Source: Candidatus Saccharimonadota bacterium (GTDB lineage: Bacteria; Patescibacteriota; Saccharimonadia; Saccharimonadales; UBA4665). Taken from it: 32,000 nucleotides of DNA. This document shows positions 12,179 to 25,121 of this stretch, one piece after another. A program made the position numbers and the translations under genes. The stretch covers positions 750,001-782,000 of the forward strand of contig CP025011.1 in the NCBI GenBank assembly GCA_002952755.1, given 5' to 3'. The notes beneath the pieces are model-generated. The model searched no databases and had not been told where the DNA came from. It worked only from the letters and a program-made list of their open reading frames with translations. Position 1 is the stretch's first letter. Each line of letters begins with the position of its first letter.

Positions 12179-12179
12179 T

Positions 12180-12383
12180 ATGACTGAAAGAATCTGCTCC
12201 GACTTTCCCGCTAATTATTGGGAAGCGATCGAGGCTGACGTTCAGCCTAAACCGCCTATTGACCCAGGAAGTGATGATCTGACAATTCAACAGATAGCTA
12301 CTCTAAACCCTGTGACACCTGACCAAATAGCGGCTACGGGGCGGTGGATGGCTGAAGAAATGCGACGAATACGGGGTTTTTGA
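12180..12383 (+). CDS. small hypothetical protein (67 aa) inserted between rpsG and fusA
   Basis: ATG lies 1 nt after the rpsG stop, with GAGGG 5-9 nt upstream. Peptide: MTERICSDFPANYWEAIEADVQPKPPIDPGSDDLTIQQIATLNPVTPDQIAATGRWMAEEMRRIRGF. I recognise no family. The track ORF start at 12069 overlaps rpsG and was rejected. Confidence 0.45.
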   Translation: MTERICSDFPANYWEAIEADVQPKPPIDPGSDDLTIQQIATLNPVTPDQIAATGRWMAEEMRRIRGF

Positions 12384-12405
12384 CCTCTCAACATAAGGAG
12401 AACAT

Positions 12406-14555: not shown

Positions 14556-14831
14556 TTGTATCGCATGCAAGACGAGAATAGGCTCGCGGAACTCCGCGCT
14601 CAGATCGATGAAGTAGACGAAAAAATTGTTGCCCTGGTAAATGAACGAGCTCGACTCGCATTGCTAGCCGGCATCGCCAAGGGCAGTCGGGAGATTCGCC
14701 GTCCCGAACGTGAGACCGAGGTGTTGAAACGCATCAGCAAGATGAGCAAAGGGCCGCTATCTGATGAAGGTATACGCGAAATATTCCACACCATAATCGG
14801 TATTTGTCGAGCCATTCAATACAATAAGTAG
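14556..14831 (+). CDS. AroQ-class (type II) chorismate mutase, monofunctional
   Basis: 88-91 aa (TTG 14556 or ATG 14565). It aligns by eye with the E. coli PheA CM domain: LAELRAQIDEVDEKIVALVNERARLA, GIAKG, RPERETEVLKR, IFHTIIGICRAIQ. Counterparts of catalytic Arg11, Arg28, Lys39, Glu52 and Gln88 are all present. Confidence 0.75.
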   Translation: MYRMQDENRLAELRAQIDEVDEKIVALVNERARLALLAGIAKGSREIRRPERETEVLKRISKMSKGPLSDEGIREIFHTIIGICRAIQYNK

Positions 14832-16561: not shown

Positions 16562-16575
16562 ATCTTCTGTCCTAT

Positions 16576-16613
16576 AAAAAATAAACCGCCTATAAAGAAG
16601 CGGTTTATTTTTT
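16576..16613. terminator. intrinsic (bidirectional-type) terminator directly after rpsJ
   Basis: AAAAAATAAACCGC - 10-nt loop - GCGGTTTATTTTTT. This is a perfect 14-bp stem with an A-tract on one side and a T-tract on the other. Confidence 0.75.
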
Positions 16614-16678
16614 ATATTAGGCCAACGCATTTAGTTGAACGATTAGAATCGTAGCGAGTGTAGTGATATCATCTAAGG

Positions 16679-17461
16679 ATGTCAGAATTCGATTCGAATG
16701 TCCCAGATGCGGCAAGAAGCGCTTTTCGCACAACCTTACACCGAGAGCGGGGTAAGCGAAGAGCGGCAGGATTTATGATAGGTTCGGTGGCGTTTGCCGG
16801 AGAAGGGGACGCACTCATATGCGTGGATGAATGTACTCCGAAAAATCCACCCCGCCTACGTTTTCCACGTTACATGGTAACCATAGGTGCCATAGGAGAC
16901 TTTGGAAAGGAAAACATTGAAGGGGCGGTCATCACCCATGTAACGCCTAATCATACGCTGGACGGCTGGAGCAAATACAGCCTACCCCTGCCATACGCTC
17001 TACCGTGGTCCAAGATAGCTCGAGCGCAAGGATTGTATAGAGAAGTTGCTTTATCGGCGAAGTATAAGTACGGCGAGATGGCGTCTCCTGCCTTACACGG
17101 CATAGCGTCAGAGTATTATAAGCTCTATGAGCGGGGCGGTCTGCTGTACGACCTAGGGGAGCAGCCTTATAGAGAAGAGTTGTGCGAAGGCATGTCGCCG
17201 CATATGGCATCCGCCTTAGGGCCAGCGCAAGACAACCTGGCGAGCACATTAGAAGAAGTTGCCGCCCAGCTGCGCAGATCACCGGAAGCCATACTAGACG
17301 CATGGCCACTTAGTGAGGGCCCGCTTTTTCGTAAGGGAAAGCCGAGCTATGACGGCGTAAGACTCGAGTGGACGACCGACTTTTCGGGAGCGACCTTGGC
17401 TGGCTTAGGGGTGCAGCCGATAGACCCTCAGCCGTGGTTCCGTCCTAATGCACGTTCATAA
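16679..17461 (+). CDS. hypothetical protein (260 aa), no recognisable domain
   Basis: Long ORF in the rpsJ|rplC island. AAGG sits immediately upstream of the ATG. I recognise no motif. Confidence 0.55.
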   Translation: MSEFDSNVPDAARSAFRTTLHRERGKRRAAGFMIGSVAFAGEGDALICVDECTPKNPPRLRFPRYMVTIGAIGDFGKENIEGAVITHVTPNHTLDGWSKYSLPLPYALPWSKIARAQGLYREVALSAKYKYGEMASPALHGIASEYYKLYERGGLLYDLGEQPYREELCEGMSPHMASALGPAQDNLASTLEEVAAQLRRSPEAILDAWPLSEGPLFRKGKPSYDGVRLEWTTDFSGATLAGLGVQPIDPQPWFRPNARS

Positions 17462-17535
17462 TGTGGAGCGATTTTAATTGTCTCGCTCGTATTCAACACT
17501 GCCCAGGAAGCGGATAACTAGATTGGAGATGATGT

Positions 17536-18087
17536 ATGATGAAGTCGCCAGAATTAATCGTGTTTGTTAACGAAGACGGAGTTCCCACCGGTGAGACCGG
17601 ACCAAAGCTCGAGAGTCATACCGCATACACAAGGCTACATCTCGCTTTTTCGTGTTACATTTTCAGGCGCAGCGATAAAAAATTCCTACTGACACAGCGG
17701 GCCCTTAGTAAGAAAGTCTGGCCTGGGGTTTGGACAAATAGTGTCTGCGGACACCCGCAGCCTGGCGAAGCCACCGTGGATGCAATTCGTCGACGCGCCG
17801 CTTTCGAGCTCGGCATGCACGATTTCCAGGACATTACGCCGATATTGCCGAAGTATCGCTACACAACTCCGGAATATAACGGCATTATTGAAAACGAATT
17901 CTGTCCTGTTTACCTAGCCTACACGAACGCAGAGCCAGAGCCGAATCCCGATGAGGTCGAAGCGTACCAATGGGTTAGCTGGCAAGATTACAAGCACCTT
18001 TTAGCATCTAAGCCAGACATTATGAGTTACTGGGCCAAGGATCAATATGTACAGCTCAAAGACCTTGCACCATTTGATACGCTCTAG
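17536..18087 (+). CDS. idi: isopentenyl-diphosphate delta-isomerase, type 1 (Nudix fold)
   Basis: 183 aa, collinear with E. coli Idi. Shared blocks: HTAYTRLHLAFS (His25/His32 equivalents), RALSKKVWPGVWTNSVCGHPQ (Cys67/His69), IENEFCPVY (Glu114/Glu116). SD GGAG lies upstream. Confidence 0.9.
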   Translation: MMKSPELIVFVNEDGVPTGETGPKLESHTAYTRLHLAFSCYIFRRSDKKFLLTQRALSKKVWPGVWTNSVCGHPQPGEATVDAIRRRAAFELGMHDFQDITPILPKYRYTTPEYNGIIENEFCPVYLAYTNAEPEPNPDEVEAYQWVSWQDYKHLLASKPDIMSYWAKDQYVQLKDLAPFDTL

Positions 18088-18111
18088 ACGCACTGCCGAA
18101 ATGTGCATTGC

Positions 18112-18140
18112 TTGTGGTGAGATAACACGCAAGGTATACT
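18112..18140 (+). promoter_or_regulatory. candidate promoter TTGTGG-17 nt-TATACT
   Basis: The -10 ends 8 nt before ATG 18149, which is leaderless geometry. Confidence 0.35.
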
Positions 18141-18148
18141 AAGCGCTA

Positions 18149-18427
18149 ATGACAAAAACAAAAAAGAAAAACAGCCCAAGGCGGCGAGAGCTGGATGGTG
18201 TTTTCTTATTAAAGTTGGTGTTGTATGTGCTGCTAGGGTCGATGTGGCTCAAAATCAGCCATGGAGACATGGTTCGCCTACCGATCCCCATCGGATTGGC
18301 CATGGGCTTGGTTTTTACGAGTCATGAACATTTCCAAATCGACCGTAAAATTGAATACGCCGTGCTGCTTATAGCTATGCTCATAGGCTATCTTGCCCCA
18401 TACGGCCTGTACATATATCTAAACTAG
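18149..18427 (+). CDS. small membrane protein (92 aa)
   Basis: K/R-rich N-terminus followed by hydrophobic helices (VFLLKLVLYVLLGSMWL, IPIGLAMGLVFT, YAVLLIAMLIGYLAPYGLYIYL). Confidence 0.55.
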   Translation: MTKTKKKNSPRRRELDGVFLLKLVLYVLLGSMWLKISHGDMVRLPIPIGLAMGLVFTSHEHFQIDRKIEYAVLLIAMLIGYLAPYGLYIYLN

Positions 18428-19018
18428 CTACATATCCGGCATTTCGTCTGAGATCATCTCCTGGACAGTTTTCTTAAACTCGGCTAGTACTGCCGAAGGG
18501 CGAAGTATTGACGGGTACCACAAGTGCACTATTGTTTCGCCGATTGGAGCTACTTTGCTTTCGACTACAGTACTAAATTGACAAACGGCTAGCGGCAGAG
18601 GGGGTCTTTCCCGTTTTGCGTCTGCGATGGCGAGACGGACTGGCTTTACTGGGGAAAGCATACGTTCGTACGCTTCCCAAGCATTTTTGGTCGCTGGTGA
18701 GACTCTGTCTAATGCTGCTCGACCAATACTTGCACCCAAGATCATCTTTCTCATCCTTGCCGCTTCTTGCGCAACGACCTCTGGATTATCTTCCTGCGTA
18801 ATAGTAATTGCAGTGTAGTATCTATCAAATTCAGGATCTGCTCCTGGCCAATAAAATGCCGCTGAGCAGTGGTCTAATTGAATATCTGGATCATAAGCGT
18901 CTGTTACCCCAGGCTCGCTGTTACTGAGCGCGATATTTGAGTAATCGGAGTCATGAGACAAGCCTTCTAATATATAAAGACTACGCTCGCTCTGGTAGGG
19001 ATATTCTGAATTGGCCAT
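18428..19018 (-). CDS. hypothetical protein (196 aa), the only minus-strand gene in the window
   Basis: I prefer ATG 19018 (MANSEYPYQ...) over the track TTG 19093. A perfect TATAAT on the minus strand at 19037-19032 lies 13 nt upstream. No recognisable domain. Confidence 0.5.
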   Translation of the reverse strand: MANSEYPYQSERSLYILEGLSHDSDYSNIALSNSEPGVTDAYDPDIQLDHCSAAFYWPGADPEFDRYYTAITITQEDNPEVVAQEAARMRKMILGASIGRAALDRVSPATKNAWEAYERMLSPVKPVRLAIADAKRERPPLPLAVCQFSTVVESKVAPIGETIVHLWYPSILRPSAVLAEFKKTVQEMISDEMPDM

Positions 19019-19086
19019 GAAAAACCTTATTATTATACGTTCGCAAAGAAAAATCACTCTAACGTCAGTGTAGAATTGTCTACACA

Positions 19087-19115
19087 TTGACAAGGGAAGA
19101 TATCTCTGTTACGAT
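19087..19115 (+). promoter_or_regulatory. rplC-operon promoter TTGACA-17 nt-TACGAT with extended -10 TG
   Basis: Consensus -35 at 19087-19092 and TGTTACGAT at 19107-19115. A ~150-nt leader precedes rplC. Confidence 0.55.
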
Positions 19116-19273
19116 GTATTGGTATATCAAATACCTGTACTTGGTGATTTGAGCAGGTCGCTCTTAACAGAGGCGAAACCACTCGGAGCCGAGCGTTTTT
19201 ATACTCGTGAAGTTATAAAAGGTGAGGCGGCAGGATAAGGATGCGGACTACCATGTGTCCGTATGGAGTCACT

Positions 19274-19894
19274 ATGAAAGCACTCATTACCCGAAAGGTA
19301 GGCATGACCAGCACCATCGCAGAAGATGGCGTTGTTACTGCTATTACCTTGCTTTCCGCTAGTCCCTGCGTTATTACGCAGGTCAAAACCGCAGATCCAG
19401 ACGGCTACACCGCCGTGCAGATCGGTTTTGAAGAAGCAAAAAAGCAAAACGTTAACAAGGCGCAAGCTGGTCATTTCGCGAAGGCCGGCGAGATTATGCC
19501 AAAAATTATTCGCGAGTTCCGCGTCGACGAAATCACTGAAGACCTCAAGGTTGGAGAAACGATCAACCCCGAGGTCTTTTCAATTGGTGACGAAATCGAC
19601 GTAACGGGCACCAGCAAAGGTAAAGGTTGGGCCGGCACTATTAAGCGTCACAACTTCCACCGCGGCCGCAAGACCCACGGTGGCCGGTCGTACCGCCGTC
19701 CTGGTTCTATTGGCTCTATGTACCCTCAGAAGATTTTCAAGGGTAAGAAGATGGCTGGCCACATGGGCGCTGAGCAAGTCACCGTCAAGAATTTGAAGGT
19801 TGCACTCGTCGATACTGAGCTGGGTGTCATCGGCGTTACCGGTGCAGTGCCTGGCCCACGCAACGGCATTGTCATCATTAAGGAGGCCAAGTAA
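19274..19894 (+). CDS. rplC: 50S ribosomal protein L3
   Basis: MKALITRKVGMTS matches the usual L3 N-terminus. GGAG lies 7 nt upstream. The track start at 19241 was rejected. Confidence 0.95.
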   Translation: MKALITRKVGMTSTIAEDGVVTAITLLSASPCVITQVKTADPDGYTAVQIGFEEAKKQNVNKAQAGHFAKAGEIMPKIIREFRVDEITEDLKVGETINPEVFSIGDEIDVTGTSKGKGWAGTIKRHNFHRGRKTHGGRSYRRPGSIGSMYPQKIFKGKKMAGHMGAEQVTVKNLKVALVDTELGVIGVTGAVPGPRNGIVIIKEAK

Positions 19895-19896
19895 TG
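19876..19896 (+). repeat. 21-bp direct repeat, left copy (rplC 3' end / SD / TAATG)
   Basis: CATTAAGGAGGCCAAGTAATG is identical to 19992-20012. Confidence 0.95.
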
Positions 19897-20010
19897 TTTG
19901 CCGCAGCTATAAGGGAAAAGAGCAGCCAGAGCAACCGAATTTACTTCGGTTCCCTGCGCGATGAGAAAAACCGTAGGTTTGTCTTATGTGCCATTAAGGA
20001 GGCCAAGTAA
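19894..20010 (+). repeat. junction insert element copy 1 (~116 bp) carrying a 38-codon mini-ORF
   Basis: ATG overlaps the rplC stop and TAA overlaps the rplD ATG. Peptide: MFAAAIREKSSQSNRIYFGSLRDEKNRRFVLCAIKEAK. Shares conserved blocks with 25005-25121. Internal hairpins at 19933-19951 and 19963-19985. Confidence 0.7.
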
Positions 20011-20012
20011 TG
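19992..20012 (+). repeat. 21-bp direct repeat, right copy
   Basis: CATTAAGGAGGCCAAGTAATG is identical to 19876-19896. Confidence 0.95.
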
Positions 20013-20660
20013 GCTGCTACAACTACCGTGCCGACCTTCACGAAGAGCGGTGCTAAAGCAACAACCGCTGCCAAGCTCGACGCCGGCGTCTTTGCGATTA
20101 TGCCAGAAAACCACGAGCTTCTGAAGCTCGCCTACACCGCATACCTCGCAAACGGCCGCGACAACTTGGCGCAAACCAAAACCCGCGGCCTGGTGAGTGG
20201 TGGCGGCAAGAAACCCTGGAAGCAAAAGGGCACTGGCCGCGCACGCTTCGGCTCTACCCGTAACCCTATTTGGCGTGGCGGCGGTGTCGCCTTTGGGCCC
20301 ACCGGCAACGAAAATTACTCCGTTAAGGTAAACGTCAACGCCAAGCGCCAAGCATTGCGCCAAGCGCTCAGTCTCTCGGCCAGCGAAAGCCGAGTGTGCG
20401 TTATCGAAACTTTCGAATGCAAAGAAGGTAAGATTTCCCAAACCGCCAAGCTGCTCGACAAGGTCGGCGCCAAAGGCAGCGTGCTCATCGTCGTAGATCA
20501 CAAAGATGATCTAGCCGTACGTGCTACCAACAACCTGCCTAAGGTAAAGGTAGTACAAGCCAATTACCTCAATGTGTATGATGTCTTAAATGCCGATACT
20601 GTCCTGATCAGCGAAAAGTCACTAGCCATCATTAGCGAGTGGCTCGGAGGTACTAAGTAA
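20010..20660 (+). CDS. rplD: 50S ribosomal protein L4
   Basis: 216 aa with KKPWKQKGTGRARFGSTRNPIWRGGGVAFGP. Confidence 0.97.
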   Translation: MAATTTVPTFTKSGAKATTAAKLDAGVFAIMPENHELLKLAYTAYLANGRDNLAQTKTRGLVSGGGKKPWKQKGTGRARFGSTRNPIWRGGGVAFGPTGNENYSVKVNVNAKRQALRQALSLSASESRVCVIETFECKEGKISQTAKLLDKVGAKGSVLIVVDHKDDLAVRATNNLPKVKVVQANYLNVYDVLNADTVLISEKSLAIISEWLGGTK

Positions 20661-21846: not shown

Positions 21847-21850
21847 CGAT

Positions 21851-22081
21851 ATGACGAATCCTACAGAATTACCCAATAAACACGTCGATAGGGAATTTGT
21901 AACCGGGCTCGTCGGACAGCAAGTGGCTGCTAACTTAGCAGAGCTTGCTCGTCCGCCCCACGACCCGGTGCAGGGTTTTCGAGATCGGGGTTTACCTGAA
22001 ATTGCGCCGAATGTTTTTTCCGGTTTTGGTGGTTTAGTAATAATAGATTTTAATACCAGGACAGCAGGAGAATCCCTATGA
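21851..22081 (+). CDS. small hypothetical protein (76 aa) inserted between rplB and rpsS
   Basis: ATG lies 4 nt after the rplB stop. Its TGA overlaps the rpsS ATG (ATGA at 22078-22081). Peptide: [77 protein letters not shown] recognise no family. Confidence 0.45.
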
Positions 22082-24654: not shown

Positions 24655-25005
24655 ATGAGCACTAAGAATAAAATCGAAGACAAGATTTATAAAATCCGTC
24701 TCAATAAAGGCGATACCGTCGTAGTGACCGCCGGCAAATATAAAGGCAAAACCGGCACTATTACCGCTACTCATCCACGCGAGAACAAGGTGACTGTCGA
24801 AGGTATTAACATCGTCAAAAAGGCCGTGAAGCCCACACGGACTAACCCCCAAGGCGGTATTATCGAAATCACCAAGCCGATGTGGGTAAGCAAGGTAGCG
24901 ATTGTAGAGCCGACGAGCAAGAAGCCAAGCCGTATCGGCTATTCGATTGCTGCAGATGGCACGAAGACGCGCGTCTTTAAGAAAACCGGAAAGGCGATTA
25001 AATGA
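24655..25005 (+). CDS. rplX: 50S ribosomal protein L24
   Basis: 116 aa with a KOW motif (KGDTVVVTAGKYKGKTG). Confidence 0.95.
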   Translation: MSTKNKIEDKIYKIRLNKGDTVVVTAGKYKGKTGTITATHPRENKVTVEGINIVKKAVKPTRTNPQGGIIEITKPMWVSKVAIVEPTSKKPSRIGYSIAADGTKTRVFKKTGKAIK

Positions 25006-25121
25006 TGATTACGATGCTGAGGGAAAAAGAGCAGCGCCGGTTCGCCGTAGGCGAATGCAGCTTAGCTGCAAGGCGCAATGAGAAAAAACCGCTAGGTTTT
25101 GTCTCATGGGAGGTTAAGTAA
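25005..25121 (+). repeat. junction insert element copy 2 (~116 bp) carrying a 38-codon mini-ORF
   Basis: ATG (25005, or in-frame ATG 25002) overlaps the rplX TGA and TAA overlaps the rplE ATG. Peptide: MITMLREKEQRRFAVGECSLAARRNEKKPLGFVSWEVK. Shares conserved blocks with copy 1. Hairpins at 25041-25055, 25057-25069 and 25080-25105. Confidence 0.7.

Follow-up and report, generated by a model that had tools for sequence, protein, structure and literature searches.

At the junction of the ribosomal protein genes rplC and rplD of a Candidatus Saccharimonadota bacterium (Saccharimonadales), we identified an insert that is probably a copy of a non-autonomous, mobile and folded family with a core of about 77 nt. 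The family resembles the intervening sequences (IVSs) of bacterial rRNA and would be tolerated in operons by rebuilding the translational coupling of the genes it separates. The insert lies in a stretch of 32,000 nt (contig CP025011.1, 750,001-782,000), called the window hereafter, which covers the rpoBC-str-S10-spc region of this Saccharimonadales (TM7) bacterium and to which all coordinates refer unless another locus is named. The family is apparently a widespread and undescribed folded mobile element of Saccharibacteria of about 80 nt. A first-pass annotation of this DNA had proposed the entry of a discrete unit into an ancestral rplC-TAATG-rplD junction, accompanied by duplication and by restoration of a functional junction. 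This proposal is supported by the further copies, the empty relatives, the family-wide duplications and the favoured bridging open reading frame (ORF) reported below.

Results

The stop codon of rplC (TAA, 19892-19894) overlaps an ATG (19894-19896) in the sequence TAATG. This ATG opens an ORF of 38 codons (MFAAAIREKSSQSNRIYFGSLRDEKNRRFVLCAIKEAK; 19894-20010), the TAA of which (20008-20010) overlaps in turn the ATG of rplD (20010-20012). The 21-mer CATTAAGGAGGCCAAGTAATG occurs exactly twice in the window, at 19876-19896 and at 19992-20012, with starts 116 bp apart. No further site was found in the window when up to three mismatches were allowed, and none of 100 shuffles gave two matches (mean expectation 0.00). 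A weak similarity reaches past the 21-mer (34 nt at 85% identity). The left copy contains the last rplC codons (I-K-E-A-K), the Shine-Dalgarno (SD) sequence AAGGAGG, the rplC stop and the start of the mini-ORF; the right copy, its exact repeat, provides the SD as well as the stop of the mini-ORF and the start of rplD. The initiation region of the 38-codon ORF is thus an exact copy of the original one of rplD, which itself receives the duplicate.

Between the two 21-mers lies an inserted segment of 95 nt (19897-19991), consisting of a variable 5' extension of 14 nt, a core of 77 nt and a 3' extension of 4 nt. Its bounds were set by comparison with empty junctions and with other units flanked by duplications. 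The core (19911-19987) was aligned with 131 other copies and scored 98.7 bits (E = 1.6e-26) against our covariance model R1. It starts with a purine-rich 5' block (AAGGGAAAAGAGCAGC, 19911-19926) that appears invariant in the conservation profile; the AAAAGAGCAGC positions of this block were imposed by the search pattern, and the neighbouring G, C and G are conserved independently of it. Helix P1 (19927-19956) is closed by a 3-bp stem (CAG/CUG) and continues through an internal loop to an apical stem AACCGAA/UUCGGUU with the loop UUUAC. After a GCGC linker follows the conserved hairpin P2 (19961-19987; AUGAGA-A-AAACC GUA GGUUU-G-UCUUAU) with covarying pairs. All these features are on the forward strand. 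The overlaps, the 38-codon ORF, the 21-mer duplication and the perfect hairpin AACCGAA-TTTAC-TTCGGTT (19933-19951), to which the first-pass annotation had drawn attention, were all found at the coordinates it gave; the hairpin is the apical stem of the conserved helix P1.

A perfect 21-mer repeat with starts 116 bp apart is a pattern that mis-joined reads could give. We nevertheless consider it extremely improbable that the insert arose in the assembly or by a chance tandem duplication of local sequence. The identical insert was present in independent assemblies of the runs SRR34954208, SRR9952761 and SRR9952756, and also at a contig start from SRR34954209; since the same sequence was assembled independently from four sequencing runs, it is not due to the assembly. 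This disposes of the artefact that the first-pass annotation had raised against its own proposal. Furthermore, homologous elements occur in at least 119 unrelated contigs, and the insert resembles neither the rplC nor the rplD sequence on its flanks. The idea that it represents a diverged tandem copy of the 5' end of rplD or of the 3' end of rplC was rejected as well, since no such similarity extends beyond the 21-mer. One Logan contig (L003:1-55) begins inside the element, 55 nt before rplD, as expected where an assembly graph breaks at a multi-copy repeat.

We then compared the rplD locus of 80 related species (loci compared here and below are numbered with L; 81 species were counted for the scan of the S10/spc region). 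In most of these 80 species, including L007, L009 and L010, the rplC-rplD junction is empty and consists of a direct TAATG or ATGA overlap. L007, the closest relative, with an L3 94% and an L4 85% identical to those of the window, has an empty TAATG junction with a single copy of the duplicated stretch (ATCATTAAGGAGACTAAGTAATG|GCTGCT). Homologous inserts were found at the same junction in L040 (112 nt; L4 68% identical) and in L190. L008 carries there a different insert of 61 nt.

Local blastn searches with the window insert returned extra copies at other junctions. The copy at rplD|rplW of L008 is 94% identical to the window insert, and another one is located upstream of rpsJ in L031. A second, diverged copy is present in the window itself, between rplX and rplE (25020-25107, forward strand). 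It was detected by blastn, by pattern match, by R1 (37.8 bits, E = 1.8e-8) and by its fold, in which two hairpins take the place of P1. This copy, too, is bridged on the forward strand by an ORF, here of 39 codons (25002-25121), with an ATGA overlapping the rplX stop and a final TAATG overlapping the rplE start at 25121. A gapped pattern made of the invariant parts matched 2 sites in the window, 3 species genomes and at least 119 metagenome contigs, and gave no match against viral contigs. The copies outside the window are a pattern-selected sample among the matches listed, so that the proportions given for them below are not genome-wide frequencies. Copy counts by blastn and covariance model and a look for empty junctions in close relatives were among the checks that the first-pass annotation had suggested, and both came out as it had anticipated.

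The order of the unit is AAGGGAAAAGAGCAGC, P1, GCGC and GAUGAGAAAAACC-GUA-GGUUUGUCUCAU. In an alignment of 127 copies with their flanks, conservation stopped sharply at both ends (AAGGG... to ...GTCTCAT), and these ends are not inverted repeats of one another. P1 adopts one and the same architecture in all 132 unique copies, which comprise 126 different P1 sequences: closure by 3 bp (CxG/Cx'G), an internal loop of 1x1, a stem of 7-8 bp and a loop of 5 nt. In P2, base pairs covary among the 132 copies (AU:99/UA:14, UA:103/CG:14 and CG:91/AU:33), and 19 G-U wobbles as compared with 5 A-C mismatches indicate that the given strand is the folding strand. Covariation statistics were obtained with a gap-poor alignment of 20 sequences (A5). 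There, 95.7% of the cells were paired (99% in P2) as compared with 82.7% in shuffles. Changes on both sides were seen in 12 of 20 pairs, and 7 of the 9 modelled P1 pairs showed compensatory changes. The covariation score was 0.373 versus 0.127 in shuffled alignments and was reached in none of 500 shuffles, with slid controls at 0.09 or below. Compensatory changes maintain the fold. In many copies, P2 is followed by a small third hairpin (P3), and a putative helix P0, formed by the upstream extension with the 5' block, is weakly enriched (38% vs 23%).

A search of positions 19000-20200 of the window against Rfam returned no match up to E = 10, and therefore no curated ribozyme, riboswitch or ribosomal protein leader; on eight loci, only rRNA and tRNA models matched. 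By eye, parts of the element resemble a hammerhead-like GAUGAG/GAAA, an antisense boxA-like sequence, a TAnnTTTG promoter box of the Bacteroidetes type and a mimic of a tRNA minihelix. We set these resemblances aside because of wrong spacing or orientation, covariation indicating pairing, and lack of Rfam support. In the literature, we found no described repeat of Saccharibacteria or of the candidate phyla radiation, and no tRNA-leader motif, of such a kind.

Probable traces of insertion were seen at other copies as well. Exact, locus-specific flanking repeats of 12-33 bp were found at ten of them. With mismatches allowed, 22 of 128 copies had significant duplications of 10-43 bp, where about 1.3 were expected. 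The duplications were concentrated at gene junctions, at 5' ends of genes and at terminators, and the copies residing there are presumably new insertions. Since long flanking duplications are a trait of the family, the 21-mer of the window can be attributed to target duplication. In seven loci, the first codons of a gene were duplicated that we take, by eye, to be msrA-like from its FAAGCFWG motif. The segments between duplications measure 83-119 nt. They extend the core by 1-22 nt on the 5' side, where copies are not homologous to each other, and by 4-22 nt on the 3' side, where homology reaches to the very end. Copies are single per site, except for a partial tandem in L103. At this site (L103:1088-1270, uvrD|NUDIX), the duplication reaches 26 nt into the element, which results in a partial tandem repeat (period 119). 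The NUDIX gene consequently takes its first ten codons (MSSEKSSQTK) from the 5' block of the element.

The subfamilies defined by P1 cross unrelated sites, and more than one subfamily can be found at a single site. The largest one has 27 copies in 26 loci; it was found at three sites of 23S, in one spacer, in the leaders of eight kinds of tRNA and at uvrD|NUDIX. The subfamily of the window insert comprises six copies, almost confined to ribosomal-protein junctions. A 9-mer (GCAGCTATA) common to the 5' extension in the window and the tRNA-Trp leader of L098 was considered as a trace of the donor and found too weak to name one. We also searched for a parent in which the two ends of the element are separated by an ORF; this yielded only further complete copies.

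The first-pass annotation had described an insert threaded by a mini-ORF, which is correct for this junction, but the unit turned out to be a conserved folded element that resides mostly in rRNA and in pre-tRNA leaders. According to ARAGORN, 37 of 38 tRNA-adjacent copies have the orientation of the tRNA and are placed 6-21 nt upstream of it, in front of at least 14 kinds of tRNA. In tRNA loci, a promoter of the type TGnTAnAAT is found 25-45 nt upstream of the element. Situated between promoter and mature 5' end, the element is therefore part of the 5' leader of the pre-tRNA. Even in loci selected for the presence of the element, it was carried by 37 of 82 tRNAs. The 80 rplD loci, for which the element was no criterion of choice, are devoid of tRNAs. 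In L191 (about 687-760), ARAGORN called a 'tRNA-Stop' (anticodon TTA) beside a tRNA-Thr and 21 nt downstream of a copy, which may be a suppressor tRNA or a mis-call.

Copies in 23S rRNA were placed with Rfam, with blastn after masking of the element copies in the query, and with an alignment anchored to E. coli. Thirteen sense copies lie inside the 23S, at nt 541/542 (H25), 1178/1179 (H45), about 1720 (H63) and 363/364, where the helix names are our assignment from the secondary structure of the E. coli 23S onto the aligned positions. Further sense copies are located just 5' of the 23S and in the 23S-5S spacer, and copies were also seen 5' of the 5S. Antisense copies were found at 23S nt 2212 and in one rRNA spacer. 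Other organisms have a short native hairpin at these 23S spots and thus empty sites. Closing stems were observed in single cases (CUGGAU/AUCCAG in L092 at H25, GCCCAU/AUGGGU in L194 at H45). In the helix 25 region of L147 (about 2100-2290), there is an insertion of about 170 nt that is unrelated to the element.

The gene context of copies was called with a self-trained gene caller. At least 16 kinds of cistron junction are occupied. Ten belong to the S10/spc region: tuf|rpsJ, rplC|rplD (window, L040 and L190), rplD|rplW, rplW|rplB, rplV|rpsC, rpsC|rplP, rpmC|rpsQ, rpsQ|rplN, rplX|rplE and rplE|rpsN. The others are rpsF|ssb, ssb|rpsR, dnaX|dnaB, uvrD|NUDIX, nusG|rplK and a recX junction. At junctions, copies occur in either orientation, and near RNA genes they are mostly transcribed in sense. 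With R1, the element was detected anywhere in S10/spc in only 5 of 81 species. This distribution is difficult to reconcile with an autoregulatory leader specific for L4 that would mimic the L4 binding site on rRNA. The insert is indeed structured and stands directly 5' of rplD, with homologues at the same junction in L040 and L190. However, the element also precedes rpsJ, rplW, rplB, rpsC, rplP, rpsQ, rplN, rplE, rpsN, ssb, rpsR, dnaB, rplK and no fewer than 14 kinds of tRNA, occurs within 23S rRNA, and is missing between rplC and rplD in most relatives. We regard such a leader function as highly improbable.

Copies at cistron junctions differ from those in RNA genes by their reading frames. 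An ORF with a start codon runs through the element in 16 of 20 sense junction copies, and 10 of these 16 ORFs end in TAATG on the downstream start. The "REKSS..." frame was open in 18/20 junction copies but in 24/53 copies in tRNA or rRNA context (p = 5e-4), and the P1 length class that puts a conserved TGA and TAG in frame was seen in 0/20 versus 20/53 (p = 8e-4); both p-values ignore shared ancestry and, as the junction copies belong mostly to few P1 subfamilies, overstate their independence. Of 12 antisense junction copies, 10 had a bridging ORF on the strand of the genes. As reverse complement, the element starts with ATGAGAC, by which TAATG or ATGA overlaps are formed with the stop upstream. 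Where the gene is msrA-like, its duplicated start opens an ORF across the element, and this ORF terminates at or next to the true start codon. The conserved 3' block is read in a different frame in L040 and in the second window copy. This variability of the frame between copies implies a constraint on openness and not on the peptide.

A true gene for a small protein, possibly a basic ribosome-associated peptide that was duplicated into several junctions, would also show an open frame with perfect SD and start context. Indeed, the 38-codon ORF was predicted as a gene by callers in Logan assemblies, and similar peptides (...REKSSQS.RI.F..LRDEKNRRFV...) are encoded at many junctions. It has no match in Pfam, however, and the same nucleotides are found in rRNA and pre-tRNA leaders, with in-frame stops in 55% of copies. 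The use of another frame over the 3' block in L040 and in the second window copy argues against a gene as well, and antisense copies encode unrelated peptides and yet bridge the genes. Conservation follows base pairing, not codons. A small-protein gene is for these reasons very unlikely. The mini-ORF is a consequence of the landing site and not the purpose of the element, and the peptide is a by-product.

Discussion

The arrangement at rplC|rplD suggests how an insert between two cotranslated genes may be tolerated. The 21-bp duplication would have copied the end of rplC together with its embedded SD and the TAATG overlap. A ribosome that ends rplC would restart at the first TAATG, using the original initiation region of rplD, and would then translate 38 codons across the element and melt P1 and P2 on its way. 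At the second TAATG it would stop and restart on rplD, and the coupling between L3 and L4 would be preserved. For the family as a whole, this would mean persistence in two kinds of location: in RNA that is removed or exposed at the surface, namely pre-tRNA leaders, rRNA spacers and surface helices of rRNA, and at operon junctions where a long target duplication and an open frame rebuild the coupling.

Alternatively, the element may mainly be a cis-acting RNA of benefit to the host, such as a signal for processing or stability read by a ribonuclease (in the way RNase III acts on classical IVSs), a self-cleaving ribozyme trimming precursors shortly upstream of the 5' ends of tRNA, 5S and 23S, or a regulatory handle shared by rRNA, tRNA and ribosomal protein genes, and rplD would have gained this signal. 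Its covarying helices, its fixed place 5' of mature tRNA ends with 37 of 38 copies in sense, its presence 5' of 5S and 23S, and its position downstream of promoters, by which it is transcribed, would agree with such a role. The excess of wobbles over mismatches in P2, showing that the given strand folds, points in the same direction. We consider this explanation rather unlikely for several reasons. The element is sporadic (5/81 species in S10/spc, at differing junctions; 37/82 tRNAs) and has antisense copies in 23S, in a spacer and at gene junctions. Target duplications and subfamilies that cross sites indicate insertion events, and no ribozyme, riboswitch or leader family of Rfam matched. The open frame up to the downstream start argues that the mRNA stays intact, which speaks against obligatory cleavage in mRNA.

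A number of observations nevertheless weigh against a mobile element. Some 40 positions hardly vary between deeply diverged hosts. This fits a host-beneficial RNA at least as well and, together with the fixed place just 5' of mature RNA ends, leaves room for a processing or regulatory role, either instead of mobility or in addition to it. The element recurs at the same sites in different organisms, for instance at H63 and at tRNA-Tyr, and this reuse of rRNA helices and tRNAs is likewise what a host function would predict. No duplications were detectable at tRNA- and rRNA-associated copies. No transposase, reverse transcriptase or longer parent was seen in the examined loci, so that mobility is deduced from the pattern alone. 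A search for an empty allele among strains with identical L3 found none. The single-sequence fold of the window insert is unexceptional (z = -1.5). The pattern-based choice of copies and the shared ancestry of junction copies, mentioned above, have to be added to this list.

We still favour a mobile, IVS-like family. If it moves, its features point to a strand-specific, possibly RNA-mediated integration at staggered breaks. A bacterial retroposon resembling short interspersed nuclear elements (SINEs) is a more specific version of this idea. Processing would free a structured RNA, either the pre-tRNA leader after its removal by RNase P or an rRNA intervening sequence after excision, which would be reverse-transcribed and integrated at staggered breaks. 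Retroposition would account for the length and variability of the duplications, for a 3' end that is constant and a 5' end that is ragged, for the preference for the sense strand in highly transcribed units and for the subfamilies, which would derive from master copies. The likeness to SINEs and other elements without long terminal repeats (non-LTR) concerns the footprint only: duplications of variable length, termini that are not inverted, a 3' end that is defined while the 5' end varies, a structured 3' region, sense bias, residence in highly transcribed units, and subfamilies. A poly(A) tail, a 3' repeat or a reverse transcriptase partner were, however, not identified for the element, and we know of no such retroposon in bacteria. 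Retroposition is quite unlikely in our view. If true, it would be the first such retroposon in bacteria and would provide a mechanism of spread for the long-unexplained IVSs.

How does the family relate to described systems? The first-pass annotation knew of no element with the behaviour seen at rplC|rplD, but a precedent exists in MIRUs, the interspersed repetitive units of mycobacteria. The passages on MIRUs in PMC12548453 and PMC3184786 describe them, after Supply et al. 1997, as small dispersed intra-operon repeats that are thought to be mobile, with an internal ORF that overlaps the flanking stop and start codons and with minimal effect on expression owing to translational coupling. The internal ORF of our element overlaps flanking stops and starts in the same way (TAATG/TAATG and ATGA/TAATG in the two window copies). 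According to these passages, however, MIRUs have direct repeats of 4 nt and often stand in tandem (variable number tandem repeats, VNTR), whereas the element has duplications of 10-43 bp and is mostly single per site. Its main residence in rRNA and pre-tRNA leaders is not among the locations these passages report for MIRUs. Its host (Saccharimonadales) and its strongly covarying fold also set it apart from MIRUs as described.

The likeness to IVSs is closer. IVSs in bacterial 23S are known from Salmonella, Campylobacter, Leptospira and Coxiella (PMC4990558, PMC2801512). Helices 25 and 45 are their canonical sites, RNase III excises them, and their origin is unresolved (PMC4990558). Both IVSs and our element are extra stem-loops at the tips of H25 and H45, are transcribed with the rRNA, occur sporadically and are suspected to be selfish or mobile. 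The surface helices H25 and H45 of 23S are occupied by members of the family, while the two window copies lie at mRNA junctions. Classical IVSs have been known only from rRNA genes and are defined by long terminal complementarity and RNase III excision. In contrast, the element is also found at H63, nt 363 and nt 2212, in rRNA spacers, in pre-tRNA leaders and at cistron junctions, and shows target duplications. A survey of Saccharibacteria reported that 64 of 66 rRNA insertions were short (<=250 bp), had neither introns nor endonuclease genes and were uncharacterised (PMC11270868); these short insertions probably belong at least partly to the present family.

With miniature inverted-repeat transposable elements (MITEs), ERIC (enterobacterial repetitive intergenic consensus) sequences and Correia elements, the family shares small size, lack of autonomy, dispersal, structure and frequent co-transcription with neighbours. 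It differs by the lack of terminal inverted repeats, by long and variable instead of short and fixed duplications, by a strand bias relative to the transcription of RNA genes, and by the fact that no related insertion sequence or longer parent was found. For repetitive extragenic palindromes (REP/REPIN) and elements derived from IS200/IS605, hairpin ends, an associated Y1 (RAYT/TnpA) transposase and no target duplication are expected, whereas the element has such duplications. Rickettsia palindromic elements (RPEs) are small palindromic repeats of reduced genomes which insert within genes and keep the frame. RPEs lie in frame inside coding sequences and become part of the protein; our element, in contrast, forms a separate mini-cistron or resides in RNA genes. 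The family thus belongs neither to the MITEs nor to REP/IS200-type elements nor to the MIRUs, and it extends the IVS concept beyond rRNA.

Some additional observations concern other junctions of these operons. The gap between rplB and rpsS measures 231 nt (21847-22081) and contains an ORF of 76 codons (21851-22081) that starts 4 nt past the rplB stop and has an ATGA overlap with the rpsS start. This ORF had no hit in Pfam and, in the compared loci, no homologue beyond contigs of the same organism. The same gap amounts to 265-392 nt in L019, L021, L022 and L028 and to 3-24 nt in most species. Between rpsG and fusA, a gap of 227 nt (12179-12405) holds an ORF of 67 codons (12180-12383), 1 nt past the rpsG stop; it is possibly another junction insertion. 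The genes rpsJ and rplC are normally adjacent. Here, about 2.7 kb with four ORFs (16562-19240) separate them, and a terminator-like hairpin follows rpsJ. The ORFs are found at 16679-17461 (no Pfam match), 17536-18087 (NUDIX), 18149-18427 (by eye a small membrane protein, with a similar ORF between rpsJ and rplC in L031) and 18428-19093 on the minus strand (no Pfam match). The fusA-tuf spacer of 508 nt contains a 91-codon ORF (14556-14831), by eye a putative chorismate mutase (...ELRAQIDEVDEKIVALVNERARL...). A second, unrelated cassette in L008 measures 62 nt; it contains the hairpin GCATGCC-ACT-GGCATGC and an ORF of 20 codons (MQGQ..SAYSHATGMLRRAK). Two copies are present in one operon, at rplC|rplD and rplW|rplB (L008:3942-4004 and L008:5090-5152); they are bounded by TAATG and end in a near-copy of the junction.

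Conclusion

In conclusion, we could attribute the insert between rplC and rplD to a family which also occupies tRNA leaders, rRNA and many operon junctions. To our knowledge, RNA processing in Saccharibacteria is essentially unstudied, and the family provides a strongly covarying, uncatalogued RNA motif in many of their tRNA leaders. In ribosomal-protein operons, the element also gives rise to spurious gene calls of 28-49 codons that are annotated as "hypothetical protein". Where bacterial rRNA IVSs come from and whether they move has been unclear since 1990 (PMC4990558). Here, one conserved element is found in both roles, as an IVS and as a repeat with target duplications across the genome, which opens IVS mobility to a direct test. 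All in all, the family shows how a mobile element may survive in a very compact genome: either it resides in RNA that is removed or exposed, or enough of the target is duplicated for the SD, stop and start to be rebuilt, and the element remains translatable, which keeps the coupling.

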